DNA of 64,000 bases, taken from contig CAZRCF010000001.1 of the NCBI GenBank assembly GCA_964598505.1, positions 150,543 to 214,542 of the forward strand, given 5' to 3'. The notes under the pieces are model-generated. The model saw only the letters and a list, made by a program, of their open reading frames with translations, ran no database searches and had not been told where the DNA came from. Positions 42,891 to 60,166 of the stretch are shown piece by piece (position 1 is the stretch's first letter; each line of letters starts with the position of its first letter). Origin of the DNA: an uncultured Lentimicrobiaceae bacterium (GTDB taxonomy: Bacteria > Bacteroidota > Bacteroidia > Bacteroidales > WCHB1-69). A program made the translations under genes and the position numbers.

Positions 42891-42916
42891 ATTATTATCT
42901 CCAAAATTGATTATTA

Positions 42917-42939
42917 GCAAGATCACTAATAGATCTTGC
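42917..42939 (-). terminator. degenerate copy of the CGGCAAGATCT palindromic element
   Basis: The right arm AGATCTTGCCGATA is intact. The left arm has decayed to TTAGCAAGATCA, leaving the 8-bp stem GCAAGATC/GATCTTGC. Confidence 0.45.
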
Positions 42940-42957
42940 CGATACATTTATTAAGTT

Positions 42958-43284
42958 TTATATTTTACGTTCCTGATAATCTCCAAAGATTTTATTTATC
43001 TTATTTTTTGCTTCTATTCTCATTTTATTTATATCTCTTATTTGTAAAGCTCTTTTGCCTACTTCTTCTAACGGCATATCTTTTCCATTTCTAATATCCG
43101 CTTCTAAAATCCATATCTTTGAGTTAGCTTCTATAAGATCAGCCATACTATCAAAAATTCCGGTATCATAACGTTCTATCTCTTTTTTAATTTCAATATA
43201 TTCATCTCCAATATTATCTAATACTCTTGCTTTCATTCTTAAAATAGACCATTTGTCAAATATGTCACCTACTGTCATTTTCAT
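42958..43284 (-). CDS. DUF4254-like protein (family often linked to glycosyltransferase loci)
   Basis: Pattern DKWSILRMK ... NSKIWILEADIR ... IRDINKMRIEAKNKIN resembles DUF4254. Weak, by eye only. Confidence 0.35.
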   Translation of the reverse strand: MKMTVGDIFDKWSILRMKARVLDNIGDEYIEIKKEIERYDTGIFDSMADLIEANSKIWILEADIRNGKDMPLEEVGKRALQIRDINKMRIEAKNKINKIFGDYQERKI

Positions 43285-43291
43285 AAAGTTA

Positions 43292-43858
43292 TTATTTCCT
43301 CCATGCCGTAAAGGTAGTTCTTGAATCATCTTGAAAAGTTAATGTTACGTTTTCAAGACGATTCATAAACTTTTCCATTGTAATTCTATCTGTTTTATCT
43401 GCATGCCATTCTATTGCCCATTTTCGAATTTTTAGTAATTCGTCGTCTGATAATTCAGGTAAGAAATCTTTTTCAGTTCCTTCACAATCTATTTTTAGGA
43501 AATCTATCTTTTCTAAATTATTAAGAATGCTTTTAAAACTAATAAAATCAACTTCCTCTGGAACTCCTCTTGTTAAATAAATTCCACTACTAGGTGTATC
43601 GTTTATGTCAAAATATATATTTCCTTTTCCATTATTTAAACAAACTGCAGCTTTTGTTAATTCTACTTCTTTAATTAATTTGCATATTTTGAATAATTTA
43701 TTGCATGGTTCAAACGCTATAATTCTTCCTGCTTTTTTAGATTTAGCATAATATATAAACTCTCCAACATGTGCACCAATGTCAACTACTATATCTCCTT
43801 CTTCAACATCACAATTTGGGGTTATATACGTATTAATATCTGTTACTGGATTAATCAT
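43292..43858 (-). CDS. FkbM-family SAM-dependent methyltransferase
   Basis: VVDIGAHVGEFIYYA ... IIAFEPC matches the FkbM (TIGR01444) N-terminal signature. ATGA overlap with the upstream gene. Confidence 0.7.
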   Translation of the reverse strand: MINPVTDINTYITPNCDVEEGDIVVDIGAHVGEFIYYAKSKKAGRIIAFEPCNKLFKICKLIKEVELTKAAVCLNNGKGNIYFDINDTPSSGIYLTRGVPEEVDFISFKSILNNLEKIDFLKIDCEGTEKDFLPELSDDELLKIRKWAIEWHADKTDRITMEKFMNRLENVTLTFQDDSRTTFTAWRK

Positions 43859-45300
43859 ATTCGACTCATTTCTGGTGTGCGAGCAAAACACATCTTACAT
43901 ATATTTGGAAAATCGTGATTAAGAAGTTGTTTTCTCCACAAATTCCACCTACTTAAAAATTTATCATATCCATCACGAATATCACCAATGTACATTTCAG
44001 ATTGCCAATCTCCACAACATACATGTCCTTTACCACAATAATCTACAATCAATTCCCAATTAGGTCTACCACATCTTTCGATATTATTACCTTCTATCTG
44101 TTGTATTCTTCCGTCCAGAGCACCTTGTTGAAACCTTATATTTTTACAAGTGTCTGAAAGAATATTGAGTGCAGTAGTATTTGTTTCTGGATAAATTGTA
44201 ACCATAACATCTGTAAATCTTTTTATAAGAAATTTGTCTTCGATTGATAAATTTATTCCGTTTGTCCACAGTGAGTATTTTGCTTCTGGAACAGCCTCTA
44301 TTATCTCAATTAGTTTATCTTTTGACAATAGGGGTTCATTATAATAATGAACATTAACAAGACCATCAAATCCTCGATTTATACAATGGTGAAGAAATCC
44401 GATAATATCTTTTGTTTCAAGTGGATTTCCTATTAGTTTTCGAGTGTTTCTTGGACATTCTTTATGTAAATTAGTAAGTTGACATTCATCGTTTATCTCA
44501 AATGCAAGATGTTTAAGAAAGTGAAGATCAATATGTGTATCCAGAATTGGTAATACCATATCGTTTTTGTGGGAATTACATGCAAGTACAATATCATTTT
44601 TTGTTACTGTGAAATGTTGATATCCATATCCTTTTTCCTTATTTTCTTTACTAAATCGTTTCTTGCGAAGAAGTCTTCTTGAAATTGCTAATGATGGATC
44701 TGCCATTTGCCAATGAACACCACTATATCTTTCTGCACAAAGATTGAACTCCTTTTCTAATTCGTGATTTCCAGGTTTAAATTGAATACCTATTCCTGGT
44801 CTAATAACAATAGGTTTTACATAATATATATTTGCAGCAGTATGTTCTGACTGCCAAGTTGATAGTCGATCGGGATCGCCATGTAATCTTTGTGGAACAG
44901 GTAAATCATTATAATCAAGATCTTTGTCGTCTTTATGCCGATATACTTGATATAACCATGCTAATATTATATCTCCTTCTTGGCGTTTTAAGAACTCTTT
45001 AGAATTTTCCCATGAAGCTGGAAATATAAATTCGTCCGGGTCAACAACATAGACCCAATCACATTTTATTAAGTTAAGTTGTTCATTTATTATTCGTACT
45101 TTTTGTGAATCATCAAGTCCTTCTTCTATATGACATGGAATTATTTTAATATTATTATATGATAAAAGAATACTCTCTGTTTTATCATCTGTATCAGTTT
45201 CTAGAAGGACCCTAATTTCGTCAACATCTTTATAATGATTACAAAAAAAATGAGCCATTTGCTCTTCATTATACATCATCGTAATGATTCCAATTCGCAT
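43855..45300 (-). CDS. two-domain protein: GT2-like glycosyltransferase N-domain + Cys-rich radical-SAM/SPASM-like C-domain
   Basis: N-terminus MRIGIITMMYNEE... is GT-A-like. C-terminus has VHYYNEPLL, WTNG, CGRPNWELIVDYCGKGHVCCGDW...IGDI...CKMCF (SPASM/twitch-like). No canonical CxxxCxxC motif was seen. Confidence 0.4.
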   Translation of the reverse strand: MRIGIITMMYNEEQMAHFFCNHYKDVDEIRVLLETDTDDKTESILLSYNNIKIIPCHIEEGLDDSQKVRIINEQLNLIKCDWVYVVDPDEFIFPASWENSKEFLKRQEGDIILAWLYQVYRHKDDKDLDYNDLPVPQRLHGDPDRLSTWQSEHTAANIYYVKPIVIRPGIGIQFKPGNHELEKEFNLCAERYSGVHWQMADPSLAISRRLLRKKRFSKENKEKGYGYQHFTVTKNDIVLACNSHKNDMVLPILDTHIDLHFLKHLAFEINDECQLTNLHKECPRNTRKLIGNPLETKDIIGFLHHCINRGFDGLVNVHYYNEPLLSKDKLIEIIEAVPEAKYSLWTNGINLSIEDKFLIKRFTDVMVTIYPETNTTALNILSDTCKNIRFQQGALDGRIQQIEGNNIERCGRPNWELIVDYCGKGHVCCGDWQSEMYIGDIRDGYDKFLSRWNLWRKQLLNHDFPNICKMCFARTPEMSRI

Positions 45301-45334
45301 AGATTTCCTTTCTTTTTAATTCTAAAAAAATTGT

Positions 45335-45370
45335 TTATCGGCAAGATCTAGTTAAAGATCTTGCCGATAA
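45335..45370 (-). terminator. terminator; 28-bp CGGCAAGATCT palindromic element
   Basis: 15-bp stem TTATCGGCAAGATCT/AGATCTTGCCGATAA with loop AGTTAA. Confidence 0.7.
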
Positions 45371-45372
45371 AT

Positions 45373-45549
45373 TTATTTATTCTCAAGTTTAATTAATTGT
45401 AAATCATATCCAGCCTTATTGATATATTCGAGAATTTCAATACATAAACATTTATTTGTTGTTGTGCCGTTCTTTGGTTTTTCATTCCAAAATCCATCAC
45501 CAAATTTAGTAATACATTTGTATACGATTTTCATATCAGAAGCTTTCAT
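45373..45549 (-). CDS. small hypothetical protein (58 aa), paralog of the C-terminal part of 45546..45842
   Basis: ATGA overlap with the upstream stop. Shares the ..KAGY(D/N)L(Q/K)LIK.. segment with the neighbouring ORF. Confidence 0.4.
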   Translation of the reverse strand: MKASDMKIVYKCITKFGDGFWNEKPKNGTTTNKCLCIEILEYINKAGYDLQLIKLENK

Positions 45550-45842
45550 TTTATATTCTCCAATTCTTGTGAGATAACTTTTAATAAGCTTTTAATAATA
45601 TGTGGATGATTCTTTATTTTAAATTCTAAAGTAGCATCTCGAATAACTGAATTTTCCTTACCGATATCTACATTTAATACAATTTGGTTATCTATATATT
45701 TTTCTGGATTCTCTCCAATTTTAATTAATTTTAAATTATATCCAGCTTTATGTAAACAATTTACAACATCATTACTTACTTTTCCTGGCTGGTTTAAATC
45801 AACATCTATTATATTTTTAAATAGAGTTTCATCAAGATTCAT
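45546..45842 (-). CDS. hypothetical protein (98 aa)
   Basis: ORF track; overlaps the end of ligA by 4 nt. Confidence 0.5.
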   Translation of the reverse strand: MNLDETLFKNIIDVDLNQPGKVSNDVVNCLHKAGYNLKLIKIGENPEKYIDNQIVLNVDIGKENSVIRDATLEFKIKNHPHIIKSLLKVISQELENIK

Positions 45843-47740
45843 TTTTTATTTTCCTTTATCAAAGATATTAATTCTGTTTCCGTTATAACTTTAACACCTC
45901 TTTCAACTGCTTTTTTGAATTTACTTGAATCACTCGGAGTATTACAAATTAAATAATCACATGATGATATACTTGAATTTGTCCCTCCAAACTTTTCAAT
46001 TATTTGTTCATAAGCTTTTCTTGGCTTACTTAAACTTCCAGTTATACAAAAGCTTTTGCCGGTTAAAGGACCTTTTACAGATACAAAATTTATACCAGTA
46101 TCCATTAATTTCTTTAATAATTCTTTATTCTCTTTTAATCCTTTAATAACTGAAGTTACTTTTATTTCTCCAAGTCCTTTGACTTGAATTAATTTAGTAA
46201 TCATAGTTTTTAACAAATCTTGGTTATCAAGAGCATTAATAATGTCTTGCGGTGAAAAGTTTTCCAAAATTAATTTAGATGTTGTATTTCCTAAATTATC
46301 AATTCCAAAAGCGGCAAGAATCTTTTCAGGTCTTGCTTTTTTAGTTTGTTCAATTCGATTTAAAAAATCATCAGTTGATGTTTCTGCCCAACCATCTAAT
46401 TTTAAAATATCTTCTCTCTTTAAATTATAAATATCAATAACGGTTTTACAACCTAAACTTGTAATCATCTTCTCACTAAAGTTTTCAAGTCCAAGCTTCT
46501 CAAAGAAATATGCTATTCCTTTTTGAGTTTGTGCAGGACAATTTTGGTTAGTGCAATATAAATGTGTTTTGGTATCATCGGTTTCTAACGGATGATGTTT
46601 ACAAGTTGGACACGCTATTAATCCACCAACATTTTCAGATGCTTTAATTACATTTTCAATATATGGAATAACATCTCCAGATCGAACAATCTTAATGATT
46701 GCTCCTGGTCCGATGTTATTATCATAAATGAATTTTGCATGAAATCCTGTTGCTCTCTTAATTGTTACTCCACCCAAGTTAACTGGTTTAATTTTCACCA
46801 CTGGAATAATTTTTCCAGTTCGAGAAGTATTCCATTCAACTTCTTCAACTTTCGCTTCTATTGCCATTTTATTAAACTTAAATGCTATTTTCTTTTCGGG
46901 AAGTTTAATATTTTCAACTGCTGAACTATTAACTGTTACAACAATCCCATCTTTATCATATTGAGTTGTTTGTTCAAATAATTTTTTAGCAACTTCAATC
47001 ACTATTGTTTTAGTATCTGCGTGAGCAAAATTAACTACTGAATTGTTTAAAATTCCAAATGTTTCTTGCATATACTTCATGCGTCCAAGTTCATTAGTTT
47101 CAAGATCAGTTGGTATAAATTGATTTGGAACATATGTATGAAATATAACATAAAGATGTTGTAATTTACTATGATCATCTCTATTAATTATTCCCGCTGC
47201 AGCATTACGTTTAGTCTTATATGGAGTTCCATCATCTCTCTTAATCGATTCTGGTTCACAATTTAAGAGAATTTCACCTTTAAAATATTGTTTACCAAGT
47301 GGTTGAGACCGAATACAACTATGAGTAGGAGTAAATTTAAGAGCCTTAGCTGTAATATTTTCACCCACATAATGATCACCTCTTAACCAAGCTCCTGTTA
47401 AAGTACCATCCGTGTATTCACATTCAATTGCAACTCCATCAAGTTTATGAGATAGAACAAATCCACTTCCATTGTCATTTTTATCTAACCAAGCTTGAAT
47501 ATCATCTTCAAATTTATTCGTTAAGCTACCTAAAATAAATGGTAATGTTTCTTTATTCTTTTTAGGTTTATTTCCTATCTTTAATAAGAATTTACTATTT
47601 GGTCTTAATTGTTGTAAAATTCTTTTATAATGATCATATTCATTATCTGGAATTTTTATTTCTCCAATTTCATAAGCTTCTAAACAAGATTCTAATTCTT
47701 GTTCAAGTCTGTCTAAGTCTTCAGTTGTATACTCTTCCAT
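45839..47740 (-). CDS. ligA: NAD-dependent DNA ligase LigA
   Basis: Adenylation motif KLDGVA, Zn finger CPTC...C.NQNCPAQ, HhH region, C-terminal BRCT-like GKSFCITGSL. Confidence 0.9.
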   Translation of the reverse strand: MEEYTTEDLDRLEQELESCLEAYEIGEIKIPDNEYDHYKRILQQLRPNSKFLLKIGNKPKKNKETLPFILGSLTNKFEDDIQAWLDKNDNGSGFVLSHKLDGVAIECEYTDGTLTGAWLRGDHYVGENITAKALKFTPTHSCIRSQPLGKQYFKGEILLNCEPESIKRDDGTPYKTKRNAAAGIINRDDHSKLQHLYVIFHTYVPNQFIPTDLETNELGRMKYMQETFGILNNSVVNFAHADTKTIVIEVAKKLFEQTTQYDKDGIVVTVNSSAVENIKLPEKKIAFKFNKMAIEAKVEEVEWNTSRTGKIIPVVKIKPVNLGGVTIKRATGFHAKFIYDNNIGPGAIIKIVRSGDVIPYIENVIKASENVGGLIACPTCKHHPLETDDTKTHLYCTNQNCPAQTQKGIAYFFEKLGLENFSEKMITSLGCKTVIDIYNLKREDILKLDGWAETSTDDFLNRIEQTKKARPEKILAAFGIDNLGNTTSKLILENFSPQDIINALDNQDLLKTMITKLIQVKGLGEIKVTSVIKGLKENKELLKKLMDTGINFVSVKGPLTGKSFCITGSLSKPRKAYEQIIEKFGGTNSSISSCDYLICNTPSDSSKFKKAVERGVKVITETELISLIKENKK

Positions 47741-47753
47741 TTTTTATTTTCCT

Positions 47754-48662
47754 TTATTTAAATTCTAATATAAGATCTAAATAATCTTCTCTCCAGTATG
47801 GGTATATTTCTCCATTTAATGCTCTCAAAAGATTTTCTGCCGATAAACATTTTACTAATTCATTTTCACCATTTACATGCAAGTGAACATTTTGAGGATA
47901 TAGGTACGACATTCCTCCGAAATCATTAATATTACCATTTGGTTTTGGAAGATAAAATCTATCTAAAGATGGTTTATCTGTAATAATAATTCCTTTAACG
48001 TCTAGAGCTGCAGCGATATGCATTGGTCCAGAATCTATTCCTATAAAATATTCAAATGTTGCAAATCTTTTTATCATTTCTTCAGTAGGTAAACTAAAGT
48101 ACTCCACATTCTTTAAGTGTGGAGTACTTTGTTTAGCAAACGTTTCAACAAAATGAAATTTATTATTGTTATTATCTACAAATTTTTGAATAAGAGGAGT
48201 TATGATATCTGTTAGATAATGAAATGAATGCCCTTCTATATTAATAAGAATTGTATTCGGAATTTTATTACATCTGAAATTAATATATGGTTTTGGTTTA
48301 ATATCTATTTCAAAATCCATTGCTCTGCTTTGAACTTGTAACCAATGGCCATTTCCAGCATCTATATCATACAATTGACATATTGCATTATATTTTGATA
48401 GATCTAATTCATCTTCCGAAATATAATAATCATTAAAAACCATTAAAGGTTCAAAAAATGTGCTTTGACTAAATATATGAACTTCCCGATTTGCTTTAAA
48501 AGCTTTTTTTGGTATGATTGATAAAAAAGCTGTATCTCCGAAATTCCAAGAAGTATTAGTCCAATTCATAGCATAATCAATAAATTTTATTTTTCGATCT
48601 GTTGGAAATTGTTTATTAACTTTCTTGATCATTGAAAGAATATCATCTTTTGTATATATCAT
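47754..48662 (-). CDS. glycosyltransferase family 9 (heptosyltransferase-like)
   Basis: IGIDSGPMHIAAALDVKGIII matches the GT9 D(S/T)GxxHLAAA motif. Confidence 0.65.
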   Translation of the reverse strand: MIYTKDDILSMIKKVNKQFPTDRKIKFIDYAMNWTNTSWNFGDTAFLSIIPKKAFKANREVHIFSQSTFFEPLMVFNDYYISEDELDLSKYNAICQLYDIDAGNGHWLQVQSRAMDFEIDIKPKPYINFRCNKIPNTILINIEGHSFHYLTDIITPLIQKFVDNNNNKFHFVETFAKQSTPHLKNVEYFSLPTEEMIKRFATFEYFIGIDSGPMHIAAALDVKGIIITDKPSLDRFYLPKPNGNINDFGGMSYLYPQNVHLHVNGENELVKCLSAENLLRALNGEIYPYWREDYLDLILEFK

Positions 48663-49075
48663 ATTTCTTCTAAAATTTGATTAATTTGTGTATTTGTTAA
48701 TCCACAAGATGCAGATTTATTCAAAATTCTTAATACCACTTCTACGGTTTCAGGATCAGATGATGAAATCTTTTCTAAGAAAGATTTCTCTTCATCTGAT
48801 ACATCTCCAGTTTTTGAATTTAAATAATCTAACATTTCAAAAATTCCATTAACATGTTGATTCTCTGCGGCTGCAGTATCATCAAAATATACACAGTAAT
48901 TGATTTTTGTTAGTCTAAATGAATATTTTGGATCTATTATATATGTTAAAACTTTTCTCAAAGTTTGACCAAATATTGGATCTTTTAGATGTTTTCTTAA
49001 TACTTCTTCTTTATTCATTTGTGAATGATTTATATTCTCTAGTATTTCATATATAACTTTTAAGCTTATTAACAT
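48659..49075 (-). CDS. hypothetical protein (138 aa)
   Basis: ORF track. TAATG overlap with the beta N-module gene. Confidence 0.5.
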   Translation of the reverse strand: MLISLKVIYEILENINHSQMNKEEVLRKHLKDPIFGQTLRKVLTYIIDPKYSFRLTKINYCVYFDDTAAAENQHVNGIFEMLDYLNSKTGDVSDEEKSFLEKISSSDPETVEVVLRILNKSASCGLTNTQINQILEEI

Positions 49076-50241
49076 TAGTATACCTCATCAACGAATTGTC
49101 CAAACATATCTAATTTTGTTTCTGCAATTATATAAATTGTTTCTCCTGGATTTTGTGAACTAACACTTGTTGGACATATCTTTTGAAAATGTGTTGGATG
49201 TAAATTAGCTATCATACTTGGCGCTTGTTCTGCATTTGGGCTTAACATGTAAGCTTTATGTTGTAGCATTGTATCATATGCATTTACATTATCATAAATA
49301 AATTTATTGTGTAAACTTGTATAGAAATTCTTAACAATCTCCATTTGATCCATTTGAATTTCATTAATATAAAATCCTCTTGAAGCTCTTGAAGCTGTTT
49401 GGGCAATACGTTTAAATATTGGCCAAAGTAGTATTTCAAGAAATACAAGTCTTTTTTGTGTAAGATCAATAAACGAATCATCGGTCATTGTCTTATTTAA
49501 ATCAACAACAATTTTTAATAGTGTTTGAATGTTTAAATCTTTCTCATCTATATTATAACATTGTTTATATAGTAATTTTGAATAATCATCAAAAAATATG
49601 TCGTGGAAATGTTTTTGTATTGTAGCTCTGTCCGGATCACATTTGAATAGATTACTAAAATAACTTAATAAATCTTGCTCAGATATTTGAGTTGTTGTTA
49701 TTTTAAATTCCTTTATAAATTCTTGTTTTGTTGCGGCTTGATCTGGAATATTATCTGATAAGAATATATTCAAAAAGTATATTGCCGGCATATTATTACC
49801 CATAAATGTTATCAATTTATCATATATCGTAATCGAATTAAATGTGCCCGATAGTTTAACTGATTTCTTTTTAATAACAATGGGTTTATCTAATACATAC
49901 AATGTTGGTACAAAGTTATTCCCATTAAGAATAAAGAAACAATCATCAATTAATGTCGGAATAAGAAATTTCATAAATATCTTATTTGTAGCAACATTTT
50001 GATTCATAAAATTTATTTCAACAGTTACTTGTGTGAGAGAACTATTATATATCCCATTATATGTTTGTAATTCTCTAATAGTTATATTATGAACTGTTAG
50101 ATAATTTTTATTCTGTTTGGATATATATTCAACACACAAGTTCATAAAATAGTTGATAAGACTATATTGGGCAGATCTGAAGCTACCGATTGTAAAATAA
50201 TTACTTTCGGCAACTTCAGATACTTTGGTTAGAAGATTCAA
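49075..50241 (-). CDS. multisubunit RNA polymerase beta homolog, N-terminal module (split gene), TTG start
   Basis: The C-terminal end HFQKICPTSVSSQNPGETIYIIAETKLDMFGQF aligns with beta HYGRICPIETPEGPNIGLI..YA..N.YGF. AGGAGG lies 6 nt before the TTG. Confidence 0.7.
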   Translation of the reverse strand: MNLLTKVSEVAESNYFTIGSFRSAQYSLINYFMNLCVEYISKQNKNYLTVHNITIRELQTYNGIYNSSLTQVTVEINFMNQNVATNKIFMKFLIPTLIDDCFFILNGNNFVPTLYVLDKPIVIKKKSVKLSGTFNSITIYDKLITFMGNNMPAIYFLNIFLSDNIPDQAATKQEFIKEFKITTTQISEQDLLSYFSNLFKCDPDRATIQKHFHDIFFDDYSKLLYKQCYNIDEKDLNIQTLLKIVVDLNKTMTDDSFIDLTQKRLVFLEILLWPIFKRIAQTASRASRGFYINEIQMDQMEIVKNFYTSLHNKFIYDNVNAYDTMLQHKAYMLSPNAEQAPSMIANLHPTHFQKICPTSVSSQNPGETIYIIAETKLDMFGQFVDEVY

Positions 50242-50256
50242 TATCTTCCTCCTTTA

Positions 50257-50664
50257 TTAGCTTTCTGTTGTTTCTGTTACTGGTTGTTCTGTTGCTGGTT
50301 GAGGATCATTAGATGTAAGTGGTGTTCTATTTACTTTATCTAACATTCTAAGATCATATGCTATAATTTCGTATGCTTTACGTTTTGTCCCAGGATTTGC
50401 TGTATCTTCATATTCCCGAGATTGAATCTTTCCTTCCACATATACATGTGAACCTTTTTTAAGATAATTACTAGCAATTTCAGCAAGACGCCTCCAGAAA
50501 ACTACTCTGTGCCATTCTGTGCGTTTTTGTTCATTACCTTTCTGATCTTTCCAAGTTTCAGATGTTGCAATACTAAGATTACAAACAGATGTACCATCTA
50601 CAGTGTGTCTGAGTTCTGGATCTTGTCCAAGCCAACCGATTAGAATAACTTTATTAATACTCAT
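50257..50664 (-). CDS. ssb: single-stranded DNA-binding protein (OB-fold SSB), lacks acidic C-terminal tip
   Basis: MSINKVILIGWLGQDPELRHT..G..V....IA....W.D..G....RTEWHRVV.W..LAE canonical SSB signature. Ends ..TETTES. Confidence 0.88.
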   Translation of the reverse strand: MSINKVILIGWLGQDPELRHTVDGTSVCNLSIATSETWKDQKGNEQKRTEWHRVVFWRRLAEIASNYLKKGSHVYVEGKIQSREYEDTANPGTKRKAYEIIAYDLRMLDKVNRTPLTSNDPQPATEQPVTETTES

Positions 50665-50699
50665 GTTCTTTTCTCCTTAATTCGTAGTTTGTTTTTTAG

Positions 50700-52658
50700 T
50701 TAAGATTTCAAAAATTGAAGACTCACATCCACCACCTGTTTGGTTCGACTTTTAATCGGTCGATTTTCTGGAAGATCATATTTACCATCCACTACAAGTT
50801 GTCTAACTAAATCTTTCTTTCCAGCTGTCCAATCACTTTTTACAGATAAAATTTCTTTGACTGCTAGATCACACCCGTGTGCTAACATACTTTCTAACTC
50901 CATTTGACCAACTCTACTTCCACCACCTCTTGCTCTACCTTTGGTTGGTTGTTTAGTTATACTTTTGACACTACCAAAATCTCGAGCATTTATAATTTTA
51001 GAAACTAATTTTGATAATTTCTGAATATAAATCGGGGCACATAGGATATTTTTTAAATAAACATCTTCATCTGGAAATTGTGTTTCTAATTTTAATTTTT
51101 GTTTGATAAATTTAATCGTTTCTTTTTTAATTAAAACTGTCTCTTTATAATTGATTGTATTTTTTACTAATGTTTTTATGTCAACTTCTGCAAAAGAAGG
51201 AGATTCCACAAATAAATTTGATTGATTGATATTTTCAACAAATTGATTTCTAAATTCATCATTATCTAAATTATCAATAATTTCATTTTTGACTCTTAAA
51301 TAATATTTATCATCAATATGTTTTAAAACAGATTCGTTTAACCAAGTTATTATTTCTTTTGAATTTTCGGGATTTGTTCTAATATGTTCGTCACAATACA
51401 TAACTGATTTTCCAACTAATGCTTCCAATAGTTGCCCAAGATTCTGCCGACTAAATACACTAAAAGGATTATAAATTAAATCAATTTGTTTATTTGAAGT
51501 TGTTGCAATTGGTCGCAATTCATCTGGAAGAATCAAACTGACTATTCCTTTTGCAGCATATCTGTTTGCAATTTTGTCACCGATTACTGTTGGACAATCT
51601 TTTGATATTTCTAATTCAATAAGGTAACATAAATTATTAAGTCCTATTTCTCCTCTTGATCCTTTTGTTTTTTCAATATACATATAATATTTTTGAAGAA
51701 TATATCCAACATATTGTGAATTAAAACATTTTAGAAGATCACTTCTTGTTTGTACAACAAAAGTTCCATATTTTAAATATAATTGATCCATCATATTTTC
51801 TAATTTTTGATCGATCATTACTTGTGTTCCTAGTTTTTTGAATTTATGAATTTTGATACCTGAAATAGTACCATTTTCAACTTTTGTTTTAATTTTATCA
51901 ATTGCAAATTTACCATCTCCACAGAATCCCATATTCAATAAATCTGATAATGACATATTCTTCAATGACATTTGAACTTTATTTTTTAGATCTGAATAAT
52001 TTGCTGTCGAACTATCTCTTGGAGCAATCAAACAACATACTATATCATCCTTAATTTTTTGTCCAATTGCAGGAAAATATACATATGAATCTTGATAATC
52101 TTTATAAAATTCTTGCATTAATGTATATTCATATATCGGAATATACACTTTATCAACTTGTGAATATCTAGCTTTGTCCGCTAAACTTTCAGAAATCGTA
52201 ATAGCGTCCTCGTGATTGTATCCGAAAAATGGCATGTATGCTGTAAAAACATTATATCCATAGCTCGGAACATGACCTATGAAACAATCATAATTTGCTA
52301 AAATATCCCCTCTTTTAAATTTAGATTTATTTGGAATCACATATCTCAGTTTTGTTCCAAAAGAACCTGTTGTCTTTTTTATCGGCGGAAGACTTATATC
52401 GACAACTTTATTAAGATTTGAATATTGAACAATTAATAAATCTTGATTTTTATATAATACCTCTCCATCATCCTTAGCTAATACCACTCCCATCTTAGAG
52501 GAATTTGTTACAGTATAATAATCAGATCCAATAACATATGGAATTTCAGTATTCAAGCTTGTTAATGCTTGTTGAATTTGTTTCGCACTCATCGAAGCTC
52601 TTGTACTGTCAGTTGAGCTAAGAAATGGAATAGTATTTAAATTTACACTTACAATCAT
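50700..52658 (-). CDS. multisubunit RNA polymerase beta homolog, C-terminal module (split gene)
   Basis: Begins IVSVNLNTIPFLSSTDSTRASMSAKQIQQA ([30 protein letters not shown]). Also NRYAAKGIVS and GGGSRVGQMELESMLAHGC. Confidence 0.85.
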   Translation of the reverse strand: MIVSVNLNTIPFLSSTDSTRASMSAKQIQQALTSLNTEIPYVIGSDYYTVTNSSKMGVVLAKDDGEVLYKNQDLLIVQYSNLNKVVDISLPPIKKTTGSFGTKLRYVIPNKSKFKRGDILANYDCFIGHVPSYGYNVFTAYMPFFGYNHEDAITISESLADKARYSQVDKVYIPIYEYTLMQEFYKDYQDSYVYFPAIGQKIKDDIVCCLIAPRDSSTANYSDLKNKVQMSLKNMSLSDLLNMGFCGDGKFAIDKIKTKVENGTISGIKIHKFKKLGTQVMIDQKLENMMDQLYLKYGTFVVQTRSDLLKCFNSQYVGYILQKYYMYIEKTKGSRGEIGLNNLCYLIELEISKDCPTVIGDKIANRYAAKGIVSLILPDELRPIATTSNKQIDLIYNPFSVFSRQNLGQLLEALVGKSVMYCDEHIRTNPENSKEIITWLNESVLKHIDDKYYLRVKNEIIDNLDNDEFRNQFVENINQSNLFVESPSFAEVDIKTLVKNTINYKETVLIKKETIKFIKQKLKLETQFPDEDVYLKNILCAPIYIQKLSKLVSKIINARDFGSVKSITKQPTKGRARGGGSRVGQMELESMLAHGCDLAVKEILSVKSDWTAGKKDLVRQLVVDGKYDLPENRPIKSRTKQVVDVSLQFLKS

Positions 52659-52894
52659 TCTTCCTCCTTATAAAACACTTCAAGTATTGGAAGTGACAAA
52701 TTAATAGAAATAATTTGAGGAGTTTTTTCTTTTGCCCAGTCATTTAATTTATCTATTAATAATTGTTCCGCAACAGTTACAAGTGGCATATCATAGGAAG
52801 ATATATGATTACCATCACTATCATATGCTCTACTATAACATTTTTCTTGTTGTTCTTCATAAGATAATTGAAAAACAAGTCTTCCGATTTTCAT
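52655..52894 (-). CDS. hypothetical protein (79 aa)
   Basis: ORF track. 4-nt overlap with the beta C-module gene. Confidence 0.5.
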   Translation of the reverse strand: MKIGRLVFQLSYEEQQEKCYSRAYDSDGNHISSYDMPLVTVAEQLLIDKLNDWAKEKTPQIISINLSLPILEVFYKEEE

Positions 52895-52910
52895 TCTTGC
52901 CTCCAGTTAG

Positions 52911-53315
52911 TTATACATTTCTATTAGGTATTTCGTCAGCTTTTTCATATGGAAATACTATCCAGTCATTTGTTTCTTCAGCATAATATGTTGGTTTTAT
53001 AATTGATCTTGGTTTATAATATACTGTTGCCATATCACTATTAAGATGTTTATAATTTTCTAATGTAAGTCCAGTATCTGCAATATCATCTGCTAATAGA
53101 ATGTTCTTATTTGTTCCAAATAGTTCTAAATCAATATCAGTTATGAGAGGAATTTCTAATTTATGACTTATCCAAACAGATACAATTAACCCACCTCTTG
53201 GAACTCCATAAACATATTTATATTTATCTTTATGGGGTCTAATTAATTCAATTAATTTTTCAATAGATTTAGCAAATTGATCATTCGATATAAGTATTTT
53301 ATTCCATTCTTCCAT
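52911..53315 (-). CDS. type I phosphoribosyltransferase, xanthine-guanine PRT (Gpt)-like
   Basis: VYGVPRGGL, PRPP loop ILLADDIADTGLTL, and C-terminal ..DWIVFPYE like Gpt ..TWIEQPWD. 134 aa. Confidence 0.7.
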   Translation of the reverse strand: MEEWNKILISNDQFAKSIEKLIELIRPHKDKYKYVYGVPRGGLIVSVWISHKLEIPLITDIDLELFGTNKNILLADDIADTGLTLENYKHLNSDMATVYYKPRSIIKPTYYAEETNDWIVFPYEKADEIPNRNV

Positions 53316-53362
53316 TTTTCGTTCTCCTTTTTATTTATGAGCTTAATAAAAAATAATTAGTA

Positions 53363-53391
53363 ATTATACTATTTCTATATATAAATTGTAA
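53363..53391 (-). promoter_or_regulatory. promoter-like element with ATATAGAAAT block (copy 7), best sigma-70-like fit
   Basis: Minus strand reads TTACAA-(17 nt including ATATAGAAAT)-TATAAT. The core is at 53371-53380. Confidence 0.6.
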
Positions 53392-53417
53392 TTATTAGAA
53401 ATTACTTTATTGAAATT

Positions 53418-53633
53418 TTACCAATTATCCGTATCTGTTATATCAATTTGTTTTCCACAAGCGCATTCAACGACTATAATTACTCCTAATCCAGTTGGTG
53501 TAAATCTATATGATATTCTACCACCAATAGCACCGGGTGTATTAATATTGGCTTTTTTATATTTACATGTTTTATCATGTTTCATTAACCATTTTTTTGC
53601 CTCTAATTTTTCTTTTTCATTTAGAGTAAACAT
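53418..53633 (-). CDS. small hypothetical protein (71 aa)
   Basis: Start moved to MFTLNEKEK (AAGGGAGAA upstream), downstream of the palindromic hairpin. Confidence 0.5.
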   Translation of the reverse strand: MFTLNEKEKLEAKKWLMKHDKTCKYKKANINTPGAIGGRISYRFTPTGLGVIIVVECACGKQIDITDTDNW

Positions 53634-53647
53634 TAGTTCTCCCTTAA

Positions 53648-53683
53648 AATCCGGCAAGATCTAGTTAAAGATCTTGCCGGATT
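53648..53683 (-). terminator. terminator; 28-bp CGGCAAGATCT palindromic element
   Basis: 15-bp stem AATCCGGCAAGATCT/AGATCTTGCCGGATT with loop AGTTAA. The core is identical to the one at 45338. Confidence 0.7.
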
Positions 53684-53687
53684 ACAT

Positions 53688-54002
53688 TTAAATTAATCCT
53701 TGTTTATGTAATTCACAACCATCAAGTAACGGAGCGCCTTTTTCTGGATAACCTTTACAAACTTCAGGTCTATAGTCATAAATTAGACATCCTTCTACAG
53801 AGTCTAAATTTGGACAAGGAAGATTAAATTCAATAAAGGTTAATGTTTCCCCATGTAGTGTTCTTTCACTTACTTTCGCTCCACGAGCCTCATAAAATTC
53901 TTTTATATCTGGTGTATATGGATAAGCTGAATATACTCCAACAGTTTTGCAACAAATTTGACAGTTAATACAAATCTTAGATAGTTCTTTATTATTTTCC
54001 AT
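53688..54002 (-). CDS. YkgJ/UPF0153-family CxxCxxCC zinc/iron-binding protein
   Basis: CINCQICCK ... C.IYDYRPEVCKGYP matches the family signature. Confidence 0.6.
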   Translation of the reverse strand: MENNKELSKICINCQICCKTVGVYSAYPYTPDIKEFYEARGAKVSERTLHGETLTFIEFNLPCPNLDSVEGCLIYDYRPEVCKGYPEKGAPLLDGCELHKQGLI

Positions 54003-54011
54003 TTATTTCTC

Positions 54012-54254
54012 CTAGTACAAATCTTCACTATATAATTTATTTTTTAATTTTCCAGATACACTTACTTGACCACTATCAATGAAATGCTTTAAAGCGTCTA
54101 TTCTATTGAGAAATTCACCAGTGTCTGTTACAAATCCTTGAATCTCAGTTTCATTCCAGATAAATCCTTTAAGTCTCATATCCGATATAATATTATGGTG
54201 TCTACGACCGGTATGAACTATTCCATCTTGTTTAATCGCCGCTGAAACTATCAT
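54012..54254 (-). CDS. hypothetical protein (80 aa)
   Basis: ORF track. Confidence 0.5.
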   Translation of the reverse strand: MIVSAAIKQDGIVHTGRRHHNIISDMRLKGFIWNETEIQGFVTDTGEFLNRIDALKHFIDSGQVSVSGKLKNKLYSEDLY

Positions 54255-54955
54255 TGTAGTCTCACTTTTAGATCATATATTTTGCCTTTATATATCATAG
54301 CACTAAGTAACTCAGTATTCTGATCCATTCTATATTCATATATTCTAGTAGTTATATAACTGCCTAAAACTATACCTATCAATACATATATCATAGCTAC
54401 AAACATTTGAGCTTTAACTTTAATCCACCATACACTATTCCACCAATGGCTTCCGCTTATTGCGTATTGTTCTAAATTTGACAATGCATCATGAGACATT
54501 TTTGCAGCTAATAAAGCTACTTTTTCAAATGGAACAATAATTTTATCTTTAATAAATACTTTATCTTCAGATGCTATTTCATTAACTATATCTTTGACTA
54601 TTTCAATTGCAGCTTCATCAGTTTTACTAGCAACATGAGTATTGATTACATCTATTACTTCCTGAACTTTATTTTGAACTTCAACCATAGGATGATCTAT
54701 TTCCGTTTTAGGTTTTGGTTCTGGTTCTGGGATTTCTGGTTCTTGAGGTTTTTCTTCACTTACTACTGGTTCTTGCGCAATAGATTCAGTTATAATTTGT
54801 TCGGATAATTTTGGTTCAGACATAATACTTGAAATTACTTCTTCAAATTTAATATCTTTATTTTCTTCTGGTTTAATTATTACAGATTCTGTAATAATAG
54901 ATAATTCTATATTTTCTGGTATTATTTCATTTTGAGGATTATTTACTGTTGTCAT
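54251..54955 (-). CDS. acidic Pro/Glu-rich protein with C-terminal TM segment
   Basis: EPEIPEPEPKPK low-complexity region and a C-terminal TM segment FVAMIYVLIGIVLGSYI. Confidence 0.55.
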   Translation of the reverse strand: MTTVNNPQNEIIPENIELSIITESVIIKPEENKDIKFEEVISSIMSEPKLSEQIITESIAQEPVVSEEKPQEPEIPEPEPKPKTEIDHPMVEVQNKVQEVIDVINTHVASKTDEAAIEIVKDIVNEIASEDKVFIKDKIIVPFEKVALLAAKMSHDALSNLEQYAISGSHWWNSVWWIKVKAQMFVAMIYVLIGIVLGSYITTRIYEYRMDQNTELLSAMIYKGKIYDLKVRLQ

Positions 54956-55517
54956 TTTTTCTCCTTACAGTGTCTAGTTTAATTTTTAAATTTTCTAATC
55001 GTTGTATTACATCGTTAGCTTGTCCTGTTGCTATTATAATACCTTCTGGTGTGACTCCTCCTTTATAATAAATAAGAGCTTGTTTTAAATCACCACGAGA
55101 CATTCTTAATTTTTGTTGTAAAATTCTAGCTCCATGTAATACATCAACATCTGCAAATTCATATGTAGCTGTAGGTGTTTGCATTAATCCTTTGTAATTA
55201 GCGGAAGATACGGCTTTATAATCGAAGTTAGATTCAGTTTTAAGTAATGTAGCTATTAATAATGGAGAAATATCAGTAAGCTGTGCTGCATTATTAATAG
55301 CTTTAGATATTGCGTCCAACTTATCAGTTGGGCATTGTAATATCTGTAATGCTAAATATACATCCGATTTTTTCTTAGGATCGAGCTGAATTGGCATAGG
55401 TAAAACATTGTGAAAATTAAATACGATTATTAATATCAGACATATCAAACTAATATACATTATACCTACCATGTGTGACTTGAATGATTTAAACAATGTG
55501 CTTCTAAAGAAAAACAT
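54939..55517 (-). CDS. membrane-anchored lytic transglycosylase (SLT domain)
   Basis: N-terminal TM, then LLKTESNFDYKAVSSANYKGLMQ (catalytic ES, then GLMQ). Confidence 0.75.
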   Translation of the reverse strand: MFFFRSTLFKSFKSHMVGIMYISLICLILIIVFNFHNVLPMPIQLDPKKKSDVYLALQILQCPTDKLDAISKAINNAAQLTDISPLLIATLLKTESNFDYKAVSSANYKGLMQTPTATYEFADVDVLHGARILQQKLRMSRGDLKQALIYYKGGVTPEGIIIATGQANDVIQRLENLKIKLDTVRRKNDNSK

Positions 55518-55529
55518 TTTTTAATCCTT

Positions 55530-55721
55530 TCATTTTTTAGTAGAGTATTTAAGTAATAAATAAACTCCTATTGAAAATACAATTAATACCATTATTGATA
55601 TATAGATGTGATGAATAAGTGATAAAACGATAAAACTTACAATTGAGATTAATATTAAAACTATTCCAACTAATTGTTTGTCTTTCCAAAATTCTTTTAA
55701 CATATCAAGTATTTTGTTCAT
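55530..55721 (-). CDS. small two-TM membrane protein (holin-like candidate)
   Basis: 63 aa with two hydrophobic helices and a basic C-terminus (KYSTKK). Lies directly upstream of the SLT gene. Confidence 0.4.
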   Translation of the reverse strand: MNKILDMLKEFWKDKQLVGIVLILISIVSFIVLSLIHHIYISIMVLIVFSIGVYLLLKYSTKK

Positions 55722-55752
55722 TTAAACGCCTCCTTTATTTATTTTAAATTGG

Positions 55753-55857
55753 GGCAGAGGCAGGGGTTGATACCTACAAGTATTAAACTTTATTATAATT
55801 TAATACATCTAGCCCACTAATTATCTACCTTAAGTTAGATTAGTCTGCCACTCTGCC
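55753..55857 (-). ncRNA. candidate structured RNA (about 105 nt)
   Basis: ORF-free. Terminal helix GGCAGAG(T)GCAG / CTGC-CTCTGCC encloses two hairpins (ACTAAT..ATTAGT and TATTAAA..TTTAATA). Shares the 12-mer ACTTGTAGGTAT with the 14.7-kb candidate RNA. Confidence 0.35.
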
Positions 55858-55864
55858 ATGAATT

Positions 55865-56539
55865 TTATTTATCTAACATTCTTTGATTGAGATCTCTTAA
55901 ATCCTGTCCAAGTGATTCACCACTTTCACCTGCTACTCCATTTTTCCCGGAATCTCCAATAAATCCTTCTATAATATTATATCCACCAATAGCGTTTGCT
56001 CCACCTATTTCTGGTTTTAGTTTTTCTTTAACTTTTATACAATAATCTCTACCTTCTTGTAACGCTTCAATAAAGTTATTGATGTGTTCTGGGTCAGTTA
56101 AAAGAAAGTCACCATGTAACTTGATCTTGCCGGTAAAGGCTAATATAATTGCTTTCTTCCATCTATAAAGAAATCTTCTAAACCAATTAAATTTAAAGAA
56201 TCCATATTCTGGATATCTCCAATGATCAAATCTAACCTCTTTATAAAAATGAAGTTGTATTAACCCAAATTCATTATCACATTCGATTTCAACTATCGAA
56301 CCACATTCGTTATCTCCACATTCACATTGTACTGAATACCAAAGAGATTTATCAAATTTATGTATTAATGAAACTCCTTTTTTAAATTTACTTTGAAATT
56401 CCATTTTATCGGCTTGAGTCATTTGTTGTTTCTCCTTAAATTGTTTAGCGTCATCAGATAAATGCCACTTAGATGAAGTGGATTCAAAACAGTTTGGGCA
56501 GATATATGTGCAGATAATTTTACAAGTTGGACATATCAT
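55865..56539 (-). CDS. hypothetical protein with N-terminal zinc ribbon (224 aa)
   Basis: MICPTCKIICTYICPNC. Confidence 0.55.
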   Translation of the reverse strand: MICPTCKIICTYICPNCFESTSSKWHLSDDAKQFKEKQQMTQADKMEFQSKFKKGVSLIHKFDKSLWYSVQCECGDNECGSIVEIECDNEFGLIQLHFYKEVRFDHWRYPEYGFFKFNWFRRFLYRWKKAIILAFTGKIKLHGDFLLTDPEHINNFIEALQEGRDYCIKVKEKLKPEIGGANAIGGYNIIEGFIGDSGKNGVAGESGESLGQDLRDLNQRMLDK

Positions 56540-56548
56540 TTAATCCTC

Positions 56549-56755
56549 CTATATGTATATAACATTGACTGCCATTGATTCGTCTATTCCATCTTCTTCA
56601 ACAATACCATCCCAATACATACCATCTTTTTTATAAAAAACTAATGGAGTTATACAATCAATATCTCTACTTCCCATATGATTATAATCGTCAGTAATAA
56701 CAAATGCTTCTTGATCATGTTTAGATAATATTTCTATTAGTTCTTTTACTTTCAT
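56549..56755 (-). CDS. hypothetical protein (68 aa)
   Basis: ORF track. Confidence 0.5.
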   Translation of the reverse strand: MKVKELIEILSKHDQEAFVITDDYNHMGSRDIDCITPLVFYKKDGMYWDGIVEEDGIDESMAVNVIYI

Positions 56756-56758
56756 TTA

Positions 56759-57076
56759 TTAATCCTCTATTTGATATTTGTTTTTATGCTCTTGAATTAT
56801 AATAGTTTCATTAATTATATCTGTTTTTATTGGTTCATCAGAATCATGTAATGCAACCATAAGATTTAATAATGGAAACATACTAAAATCTAAACTGTAT
56901 CCACATACATTTTTATCTGTTATTGTTTTATCTTTTATAGATTTATCAAAACTACTAATAATAGTTATTTTTTGTTTTCGATATCTTTTATTAAACATTA
57001 CAGTAAAATCATGTAAATATTGACATGTCTTTAGTAATTCAGCTTTTTCTTTTTCATCATTTACTATTATTTTCAT
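56759..57076 (-). CDS. hypothetical protein (105 aa)
   Basis: ORF track. Confidence 0.5.
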   Translation of the reverse strand: MKIIVNDEKEKAELLKTCQYLHDFTVMFNKRYRKQKITIISSFDKSIKDKTITDKNVCGYSLDFSMFPLLNLMVALHDSDEPIKTDIINETIIIQEHKNKYQIED

Positions 57077-57087
57077 TTAAGCCTCTT

Positions 57088-57876
57088 TTAATAATTTGTC
57101 ATTATTGCTACTGCATTGTGAGCGTGAATTGATTCATCGGATTCTACACTTACTTTAAATTTCTCAACATCTTCCATTTTATCTAATTTATCATATACGG
57201 CGCGAGCTATATCTTCGACAAACATTGGACTATTGTATGCTCTTTCTGTAACTACTTTTTCATCAATTCTCTTAAGTACTGAAAATATTTCACAAGATGA
57301 AGATGATTCTGCCGCTTCAATAAGGGATTCAATCCAAATAAATGAATTCTCTTTTCCTTGAACTACCATATCAATTAATACTTTCTGATTGTGTGCTCCA
57401 TATTCAGATATTTCTTTTGAGCAAGGACATAGAGATGTTGCTAATACTTTGACACCCAATCTAAATATGAAATTGTCTTTTGTTTTAATTCCAGTAAAAG
57501 AAATATGATATGGAAGTATACCAGGTTCCTGAGAAGCTGGAGCTAACTTCTGAACAAAATATGGAAACGAATAACTTATTTCACAAGTATCCGCTTCCGC
57601 TGAAATTCTTATATTTTCTGCAATTGAACTAATTAGTTTACCATTAAGTTGTTGTCCAACAAATTTCTGTAAACCAATTATTAATCTACTCATATTTGTT
57701 CCTTTAAGATTAGCAGCGAGATCTACATAACAATCAACTTTAGCAACTGAATGTTGTACTCCTCCGTTCTTCATTGAAACAAAAATAGGAAGTTCAACAG
57801 AATTGATACCAACTCTATTGATCCTAATTTCATGTACTGGTAATGTGTATTGCATATCCGGTAAGTTTTCTGACAT
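57088..57876 (-). CDS. folE2: GTP cyclohydrolase IB (FolE2 / GCYH-IB)
   Basis: N-terminal LPDMQ, RVGIN..ELPI, and SLCPCSKEIS..GAHNQ metal-site motif. AGGAGA SD upstream. Confidence 0.85.
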   Translation of the reverse strand: MSENLPDMQYTLPVHEIRINRVGINSVELPIFVSMKNGGVQHSVAKVDCYVDLAANLKGTNMSRLIIGLQKFVGQQLNGKLISSIAENIRISAEADTCEISYSFPYFVQKLAPASQEPGILPYHISFTGIKTKDNFIFRLGVKVLATSLCPCSKEISEYGAHNQKVLIDMVVQGKENSFIWIESLIEAAESSSSCEIFSVLKRIDEKVVTERAYNSPMFVEDIARAVYDKLDKMEDVEKFKVSVESDESIHAHNAVAIMTNY

Positions 57877-57899
57877 TTAACTTTATCTCCTCTTTCTTA

Positions 57900-58178
57900 T
57901 TAATTTCCGTATGGATTCTTAAATATTGGAATAGGATTGTCAATTTCTTTATCAATTTCTTCCATAGCTTTTTCTGTCCAACTGTGTGTTTCTTCCATAG
58001 ATGAATCTATCGGATCTGGAAAATCTATTTTCTTTATTTCCTGTCCAGAAATTGATATATCATATATATTTTCTGGAAAAAATAATTCTGTGATATGTTC
58101 CATTAATCCATCTATAAAATTACCAGCGTCTACATTGTCTGGTAGTGCCAAAGTAAGTTTATGATTAATTATTTGCAT
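57900..58178 (-). CDS. acidic hypothetical protein (92 aa)
   Basis: ORF track. Confidence 0.5.
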   Translation of the reverse strand: MQIINHKLTLALPDNVDAGNFIDGLMEHITELFFPENIYDISISGQEIKKIDFPDPIDSSMEETHSWTEKAMEEIDKEIDNPIPIFKNPYGN

Positions 58179-58626
58179 TTATATCTCCTCTTAAAACTTC
58201 AACTAAAAAATTCTTTACTTTCTCGAAAATACCTGGATTGGTACTTTCCCGATTTCCACTAACATTTAAAATTACAATATTGTTCCAGTTAATCCATCTA
58301 AGAAATGATTCTTTTGTAGGATTAATAATATATGGTTTTCCAAATTGTTTGCAACTATTAATTGTTAATTTTCCACCTGGACTAGATTCGTTCCCGAACC
58401 AGATAGTAGCAGAAGAATTTTTAACATTTTCAATTGTTCTTGTTCTATAATTAGGACTTCCACTTTCTGTTATCCCATACAATTCTTTAAGAGCAGGATT
58501 AAAACCAGTTTCTGTTTTAAAACCTTTAGGTGCTATTCCTCCCGTCTCGAGCTTTAAAATTTTACCAGCCTCTAACCCCGCTTGATCAGCTCCAGTTTGA
58601 GCTCCTGATATTATTTTAGTGATCAT
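58165..58626 (-). CDS. YpsA-like SLOG-superfamily nucleotide-binding protein
   Basis: IISGAQTGADQAGLEAGKILKLETGGIAPKG matches the YpsA / putative molybdenum carrier GGQTGADRAAL...GG.CPKG signature. The ATG at 58626 is preferred over the upstream TTG. Confidence 0.6.
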   Translation of the reverse strand: MITKIISGAQTGADQAGLEAGKILKLETGGIAPKGFKTETGFNPALKELYGITESGSPNYRTRTIENVKNSSATIWFGNESSPGGKLTINSCKQFGKPYIINPTKESFLRWINWNNIVILNVSGNRESTNPGIFEKVKNFLVEVLRGDINANN

Positions 58627-58798
58627 TTTTAATATCCCATAATATAAGTCGTACAAACTCTTCTAATTTATTATGTACGTCACACATATCCTCTCCTTTT
58701 TGAATAACTATTTCTCTTGTCCAATCTTTGTCATTTTGTATTCTTAAATGATAATTTTTCTCATTTTCAAAAGCACATAAATCTTTAAGTTTATTCAT
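58616..58798 (-). CDS. hypothetical protein (60 aa)
   Basis: ORF track. Confidence 0.45.
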   Translation of the reverse strand: MNKLKDLCAFENEKNYHLRIQNDKDWTREIVIQKGEDMCDVHNKLEEFVRLILWDIKNDH

Positions 58799-59048: not shown

Positions 59049-59096
59049 TTTCTTCTCCTTTTAGAAATAAAAAACAAACGATTTGAGGTCGTTATA

Positions 59097-59130: not shown

Positions 59131-59140
59131 AAAATTGCAA

Positions 59141-59171: not shown

Positions 59172-59182
59172 CTTGCCAATAT

Positions 59183-60143: not shown

Positions 60144-60166
60144 TTAGTAATCACCTCACTTTTCTA

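Follow-up and report, generated by a model that had tools for sequence, protein, structure and literature searches.

The subject of this report is a group of three adjacent genes, betaC, ssb and betaN, in a 64-kb window (the whole stretch of DNA that was analysed) from the 256.7-kb contig CAZRCF010000001.1 of an uncultured AT-rich jumbo phage. Their open reading frames (ORFs) all lie on the minus strand, exactly at the coordinates given in a first-pass annotation of this DNA:

50700..52658, minus strand: betaC, 652 aa, C-terminal half of a split beta subunit of an AR9-type non-virion RNA polymerase (RNAP)
50257..50664, minus strand: ssb, 135 aa, bacterial-type single-stranded DNA-binding protein (SSB) with an oligonucleotide-binding (OB) fold
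49075..50241, minus strand: betaN, 388 aa, N-terminal half of a split beta subunit, with a TTG start

The spacers are short, 35 nt between betaC and ssb and 15 nt between ssb and betaN, and betaC and betaN are thus 458 nt apart. The betaC ATG overlaps the stop codon of an upstream 79-aa ORF as ATGA. There is no terminator-like site on the coding strand between betaC, ssb and betaN; the sole coding-strand site of this kind lies upstream of betaC, within the 79-aa ORF. A sigma-70 promoter scan was uninformative (48 sites versus 50.7 expected). The three genes are presumably co-transcribed.

Single-sequence methods fail on the 388-aa ORF (Pfam and PHROG scans gave no match, nor did tblastn against 50,697 phage records), and a family profile was therefore needed. 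Homologues of the protein form 64 clusters in a large protein collection, most of them full-length at 374–399 aa and several encoded on contigs of 256–306 kb; none of the clusters is functionally annotated, and the few source names there are read “hypothetical protein.” An alignment of 39 of these sequences, from which both the family profile and an AlphaFold2 model were made, has a conserved C-terminal block, NLHPTHxxRICPISVSSQNPGE...FGQF, and the window protein correspondingly carries the fork-domain motif HPTH..CP..S..NPGE...FGQF and ends ...HPTHFQKICPTSVSSQNPGE...FGQFVDEVY. When the profile was compared with all PDB sequences, the top match was the betaN chain of the AR9 non-virion RNAP (7S00_c, E 2.1e-15, profile positions 39–372 of 384), and the next ∼45 were bacterial RpoB chains that all align at one shared position, E. 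coli beta 500–562 (the fork/HPTHYGRVCPIE segment). The AlphaFold2 model (pLDDT 78.8, pTM 0.80) likewise has 7S00_c as its first Foldseek match (3.8e-13, TMq 0.61), followed by bacterial beta chains and the betaN chain of the phiKZ non-virion RNAP (9rjs_E, 4.5e-8). Motif, profile and fold are concordant, and the 388-aa ORF is the N-terminal half of beta. Its TTG start is genuine; it sits 6 nt past an AAGGAGG Shine-Dalgarno sequence, residues N2 and L3 are invariant in the 39 homologues, and TTG or ATG occupies the same aligned start position in 10 of the 10 tabulated loci. The at least 64 protein clusters, unnamed and missed by Pfam and PHROGs, can now be annotated as betaN of AR9-type non-virion RNAPs, and the betaN described here is the most compact of those compared (388 aa versus 496 aa in AR9).

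The 652-aa betaC protein is more readily recognized. It matches Pfam RNA_pol_Rpb2_6 (2.5e-31) and Rpb2_7, aligns to T. thermophilus beta from residue 539 (betaC residue 2) to ∼1097, and matches chain 7S00_C of the AR9 non-virion RNAP at 2.4e-16; by tblastn it also matches the AR9 gene annotated as the C-terminus of the non-virion RNAP beta subunit. The protein starts at the IPFL..D..R..M motif (residues 10–23) and contains the motifs GYNHED, GDKIANRYAAKG, TKQPTKGR and GGSRVGQME, and the hybrid-binding and anchor domains and active-site-proximal motifs are present. At the other side of the break, the betaN profile meets T. thermophilus beta residue 443 at position 359 of 384, which extrapolates to an end at ∼468. 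Thus, ∼69 residues (T. thermophilus beta numbering, 468 to 539) are missing between the two proteins, which together tile beta once and without overlap. The break falls in the D–E spacer, between the fork domain (region D) and the IPFL/region E segment, and most of that spacer has been lost. The halves are separate genes, and both have a Shine-Dalgarno sequence and a start codon of their own; their break points are conserved to the residue across relatives.

In nine of ten distinct family loci betaC and betaN are neighbors, in either order and either abutting or with only the contents of a variable intergenic slot between them. Their identities to the window proteins also drop in parallel from relative to relative (betaC/betaN 0.71/0.68, 0.69/0.59, 0.60/0.54, 0.58/0.51, 0.49/0.43 and 0.38/0.33). 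Because of this adjacency and parallel divergence, the two proteins should belong to one enzyme; within the window, the betaN profile picks up just one gene. It is thus very probable that one AR9/phiKZ-type non-virion RNAP beta subunit is divided between the 652-aa protein (C-terminal half) and the 388-aa protein (N-terminal half). The database matches behind these assignments are strong by E-value and do not reflect chance resemblance. These results bear out most of what the first-pass annotation had proposed from the letters alone, namely the identity of the three genes (Pfam for betaC and ssb, profile and Foldseek for betaN), the C-before-N order, the TTG start, the IPFL start of betaC, the fork-motif end of betaN and the absence of roughly 70 residues between them; the profile assigns 49075..50241 to the N-terminal region of beta, and tiling, adjacency and parallel identities place both ORFs in the same polymerase.

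Two further genes in the window encode beta-prime:

28197..29504, minus strand: beta-prime N-terminal half, 435 aa; Pfam Rpb1_2, 1.8e-14
20510..22288, minus strand: beta-prime C-terminal half, 592 aa; weak Pfam Rpb1_5

The catalytic GGDFDGD lies ∼50 residues from the C-terminus of the 435-aa protein; beta-prime is therefore split after its double-psi beta-barrel domain, with the catalytic Asp triad within the N-terminal half. The best PDB matches of this protein are the AR9 non-virion beta'N chains 7S01_d and 7S00_d (∼2e-14). Bacterial beta' chains are the best matches of the 592-aa protein (up to 2.4e-20), with the AR9 beta'C chain 7S00_D behind them at 6.3e-15. All four polypeptides, betaN, betaC, beta'N and beta'C, match the four chains of one solved enzyme, and we infer that the two beta-prime halves are partner subunits of the same AR9-type polymerase. 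By analogy with that enzyme, betaN and betaC would be translated separately and would assemble post-translationally with the two beta-prime halves, and betaN is probably part of the promoter-binding surface; the AR9 non-virion RNAP reads its promoter in the template strand, and betaN is part of the pocket that does so (PMC9209446).

The closest known system is the AR9 non-virion RNAP (betaN gp105, betaC gp089; PDB 7S00/7S01/7UM0/7UM1; PMC9209446), which is the top profile and fold match for betaN and also matches betaC. Its beta subunit is split in the same D–E spacer, with chains that break within ∼20 residues of the same point, and its beta-prime halves are similar in size (448/631 aa versus 435/592 aa here). 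In AR9, betaC (73219..75216) also lies upstream of betaN (83356..84846) on the same strand, and genes for an NAD-dependent ligase and a PC4-like DNA-binding protein (76333..76569) lie between them. The differences are nonetheless considerable: betaC is only ∼24% identical to its AR9 counterpart and only a profile or fold comparison reveals the kinship of betaN, ∼35 more residues are retained at the AR9 split junction, AR9 betaC and betaN are 8 kb and ∼15 genes apart rather than 458 nt, and a subunit like AR9 gp226 was not identified in the window's two large orphan ORFs. In phiKZ the subunit genes (gp55, gp68, gp71-73, gp74 and gp123) are dispersed, with betaN numbered before betaC. The phiKZ non-virion RNAP (PDB 9rjs and others; PMC8287921, PMC7618050) has a four-polypeptide beta/beta-prime core without alpha or omega, as is predicted here, and its betaN chain is a significant fold match, weaker than that of AR9. 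The enzyme described here, from an uncultured jumbo-phage clade, adds a compact member without earlier annotation to the AR9-type non-virion RNAP family, and its gene arrangement is a variation on a documented one; current understanding of how AR9-type enzymes work is unchanged by it.

Large subunits made as two polypeptides that assemble in trans are also found in the archaeal split rpoB (B''/B') and in the cyanobacterial and plastid split rpoC. The archaeal split rpoB genes are adjacent and run N-then-C. Non-virion RNAP cores consist of four polypeptides, and the jumbo-phage beta split sites are unrelated to the archaeal one (PMC7598289).

Genomic context was compared between the window and nine relatives (percentages are betaN identity to the window protein):

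Window, 100%: betaC-ssb-betaN
L009, 68%: betaC-ssb-betaN
L012, 63%: betaC-ssb-betaN
L013, 63%: betaC-ssb-betaN
L008, 60%: betaC then betaN, 4-nt gap, empty slot
L010, 54%: betaC, four small ORFs, betaN
L003, 52%: betaC, two small ORFs, betaN
L001, 43%: betaC, four ORFs (1.9 kb), betaN
L005/L006, 32%: betaN then betaC, 27 nt apart (canonical order)
L007, 30%: betaN, no adjoining betaC in the DNA available

The family thus includes C–N orders with 4 to 1893 nt between the genes, the N–C order with 27 nt, and non-adjacent genes, and C-before-N is a stable trait of a large clade. The slot ORFs of L001, L003 and L010 are unrelated to one another, to the SSB and to the genes between the AR9 beta halves. 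A mobile-element origin of this cargo was considered and rejected, as none of the 10 slot ORFs in these three loci has an endonuclease or transposase domain (Pfam, PHROG). The family offers a natural series of arrangements (N–C adjacent, C–N abutting, C–cargo–N and dispersed), which shows that the split-subunit genes can drift in order without a shift of even one residue in the break point. Since the halves would assemble in trans, gene order should be without mechanistic consequence, and the C-before-N order may well be neutral, inherited and labile over evolutionary time.

The C-before-N order could instead have been derived within the family by tandem duplication of an adjacent N–C pair and loss of the outer copies, with the new junction later gaining cargo. 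The most divergent members, L005 and L006, are N then C with 27 nt between, the 4-nt C–N gap of L008 is the state expected just after such an event, and the AR9 genes, 8 kb and ∼15 genes apart, could have their order by coincidence. No duplicate remnants or repeats flank the genes, however, and the betaC/NAD-ligase neighborhood that AR9, Staphylococcus phage SA1, Yersinia phage phiR1-37 and the window clade have in common argues for an old C-first module. A derivation within the family is therefore a real possibility, though the less likely history, and it concerns history only; gene function is unaffected by it.

Downstream of betaN lie two ligase-related genes:

48659..49075, minus strand: 138-aa ligase-N-like ORF, whose start overlaps the betaN stop codon (TAATG)
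45839..47740, minus strand: NAD-dependent DNA ligase, 633 aa; PF01653, PF03120, BRCT

The 138-aa ORF has a weak likeness to the N-terminal DNA-binding domain of ATP-dependent ligases (phrog_114 1.5e-7, PF04675 0.011) and lacks a catalytic domain; its homologs come after betaN in L009 and L012. The window series runs betaC, ssb, betaN, ligase-N-like ORF, glycosyltransferase-like ORF, NAD-ligase, and a 5′–3′ exonuclease gene lies ∼5 kb beyond the ligase. The NAD-ligase gene also comes after betaN in L003, L008, L009, L010, L012 and L013, and it is found within a few kb after the matching betaC gene in SA1 and phiR1-37. In phiR1-37 the NAD-ligase gene is directly followed by an annotated SSB gene (190677..191009), ∼5 kb past betaC. 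The betaN profile found no match within 12 kb on either side of betaC in SA1 or phiR1-37. With the PC4-like gene of AR9 and the SSB gene of phiR1-37, a gene for a single-stranded DNA-binding protein near non-virion betaC recurs in distant lineages, probably because all of these genes lie in replication modules.

The first-pass annotation had regarded both the inverted order and a replication gene embedded in a polymerase operon as unusual, and here the comparison does not follow it. In AR9, which it cited for reference, betaN already follows betaC on the same strand. A discrete polymerase operon does not exist: of the window's 55 ORFs that reach 120 aa, 54 are co-directional on the minus strand. 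The non-virion beta genes sit in an old replication/repair module, as betaC does in AR9, SA1 and phiR1-37; this is not a case of a replication gene invading a polymerase operon. Synteny upholds C-before-N in most relatives, but it gives no conserved RNAP–ssb unit: just four loci (the window, L009, L012 and L013) have ssb in the slot, all with betaN identity of at least 63%, the gene is missing from it in L008, L010, L003, L001 and L005/L006, and the last pair is N-then-C.

The ssb product itself is bacterial-type in its OB domain, its closest known system being the bacterial homotetrameric SSB, and it matches PF00436 over its full length (positions 1–104 of 104, 3e-36) and phrog_44 (8e-46). 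The phage-clade SSBs cluster at 65–89% identity and are encoded on contigs whose lengths correspond to those of betaN-bearing contigs. The next tier consists of ordinary SSBs from bacterial metagenome-assembled genomes at 55–65%, so that this protein is far nearer to its bacterial homologs than the RNAP subunits are to theirs (∼25%). The acidic DDDIPF-type tip of bacterial SSBs docks host replication and other partner proteins. In an alignment of the phage-clade SSBs with six bacterial-tier homologs, the C-terminal (D/E)DD(I/L)P(F/L) docking tip is missing from all ten phage-clade proteins (the window SSB, which ends ...TETTES, and nine homologs), whereas four of the six bacterial-tier proteins end DD(L/I)P(F/L/T) and the other two DDLKM/DDIRM. 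The window SSB also has a 2-residue insertion in one loop relative to bacterial SSBs. Recent horizontal transfer of ssb, judged by composition, was rejected: its GC content at third codon positions (0.147) equals that of its neighbors, its higher overall GC reflects amino-acid content, and the capture is therefore not recent. Neither Rfam intron signals nor flanking repeats were found at the ssb borders in the window. The gene is a derived, subclade-specific occupant of a variable slot and not a conserved part of the arrangement. A bacterial-type SSB was probably captured by the ancestor of one subclade and came to lie in the slot, where it most likely serves phage DNA replication with the flanking ligase and exonuclease and would have no polymerase role.

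Alternatively, the tip-less SSB could belong functionally to the transcription unit, as a polymerase cofactor that, for example, holds the template strand single-stranded for promoter recognition, akin to the roles of SSBs in phage N4 transcription. Spacers of 35 nt and 15 nt, free of terminator-like sites, separate the gene from betaC and betaN, it keeps this position in every sampled locus with betaN identity of at least 63%, and its clade's proteins lack the tip that docks host replication proteins; moreover, template-strand promoter reading with betaN in the pocket is known for AR9 (PMC9209446), a PC4-like gene lies between AR9 betaC and betaN, and phiR1-37 has its SSB gene ∼5 kb after betaC. 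Against this, the slot is empty in L008, holds non-SSB ORFs in L010, L003 and L001, and does not exist in the N-then-C relatives, so an SSB gene at that place is dispensable for the polymerase. The NAD-ligase, the 5′–3′ exonuclease and the ligase-N-like ORF have replication functions that are enough to explain the position of ssb, and close spacing says little where the whole 64 kb is co-directional. Such a cofactor is thus improbable, and it is more improbable still that the tip-less SSB, co-expressed with the non-virion polymerase, has become an accessory factor of that enzyme, one that could stabilize the single-stranded template at promoter recognition. If that were true, the use of an SSB in phage transcription would have a second, independent example besides phage N4. 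Replication, then, remains the preferred assignment for ssb.

The window also encodes part of a second RNAP, a paralogous beta:

14920..19614, minus strand: second, unsplit beta-like subunit, 1564 aa; Pfam Rpb2_3, Rpb2_6

This protein aligns to E. coli beta 516–585 and 651–1323, with ∼790 residues N-terminal of the part that can be aligned to bacterial beta. It carries its own fork motif (HPSQYG, residue 899), an IPFL-equivalent region of its own and the complete set of C-terminal motifs, and it too lacks the D–E spacer, 5 residues replacing E. coli 586–650. Known jumbo phages encode the region that it covers in separate genes, and the protein has the look of a virion-type beta that is unsplit or re-fused. 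Virion and non-virion beta subunits are split at different positions (PMC7598289); the 388-aa/652-aa pair shows the AR9 non-virion split and the 1564-aa protein is unsplit. It matches the second beta gene of phiR1-37 (g099), SA1, LPJP1 and others, and it and the 652-aa protein match different genes in the same phages (for example, phiR1-37 g099 versus g261). The two proteins represent two RNAP lineages, the 1564-aa one being that of the second (virion-type) polymerase. Because it has the fork motif, the IPFL-equivalent region and the C-terminal motifs itself, it needs neither half; the idea that it borrows the 388-aa protein as an N-terminal module was rejected on its fork motif. That the 388-aa and 652-aa ORFs come from different polymerases, each with another partner, is hardly credible even though such jumbo phages encode two multisubunit RNAPs, the window has this second beta and an extra beta-prime fragment and a quarter of the genome is in view, since pairing the 1564-aa beta with the 388-aa protein would duplicate the fork, the 652-aa protein lacks one, the halves adjoin in nine of ten loci and diverge in parallel, the best phage match of both is the same solved enzyme, and the window has one betaN-profile gene.

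Several observations weigh against the interpretation of betaC and betaN as halves of one AR9-type enzyme, with ssb as incidental cargo between them. A sigma-like fifth subunit like AR9 gp226 or phiKZ gp68 would be expected of such an enzyme, and the large unannotated ORFs at 41145..42947 and 35319..36629 gave no PDB sequence match, in a family that diverges fast and with most of the genome outside the window. The 64 kb covered belongs to a 257-kb genome, and another beta fragment could lie elsewhere. The betaN protein is ∼100 residues shorter than AR9 gp105 (388 versus 496 aa), and residues 312–360 of its model have low confidence, yet the fork motif that lies there is the clearest in sequence. 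Finally, a subclade that spans 63–100% betaN identity has retained ssb in the slot, and this retention, together with the loss of the docking tip, would allow for some functional tie to the neighboring genes.

Group I intron signals accompany two RNAP genes of this family. On the minus strand at the window end, an RF00028 match (63423..63543, 34 bits, E 9.6e-7, below the Rfam gathering score) is flanked by an ORF resembling a homing endonuclease (63468..63947, HNH_3 and HTH_7) and by a 332-aa beta-prime trigger-loop fragment (62385..63383; Rpb1_5 8.6e-10, aligned to E. coli beta' 880–968). The beta-prime gene of the second polymerase looks intron-interrupted, with its upstream exon past the window end. 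In L012 (1..960), betaC is broken exactly at the conserved GYNxEDA motif; the intervening 244-aa ORF combines an HNH signature (CHKCDNPSCVNPYHL) with a helix-turn-helix (HTH), and an RF00028 match there (721..848, 31 bits, E 6e-6) ends just before the second betaC exon. It has been proposed that the jumbo-phage splits stem from intron mobility followed by rearrangement (PMC7598289). The insertions in the window beta-prime and L012 betaC fit such an origin, and putative group I introns and HNH insertions in RNAP genes provide concrete material for that published hypothesis.

GC skew is negative across the whole window (1..64000), which carries two tRNA genes, Ser-TGA (9510..9597) and Thr-TGT (22691..22766). 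A set of nucleotide-metabolism genes (listed jointly at 57088..57876, 30580..31458, 53688..54002, 5538..6428, 29852..30517 and 22783..25542) encodes a FolE2-type GTP cyclohydrolase I, a radical-SAM protein, a CxxCxxCC protein, ThyX, a dimeric-type dUTPase and a class II ribonucleotide reductase with a TSCPD domain. The presence of FolE2 with a radical-SAM protein could hint at a deazapurine DNA-modification pathway. A 163-aa protein encoded at 58165..58656 (minus strand) belongs to the circularly permuted YpsA SLOG family (PF12694, 2.8e-28).

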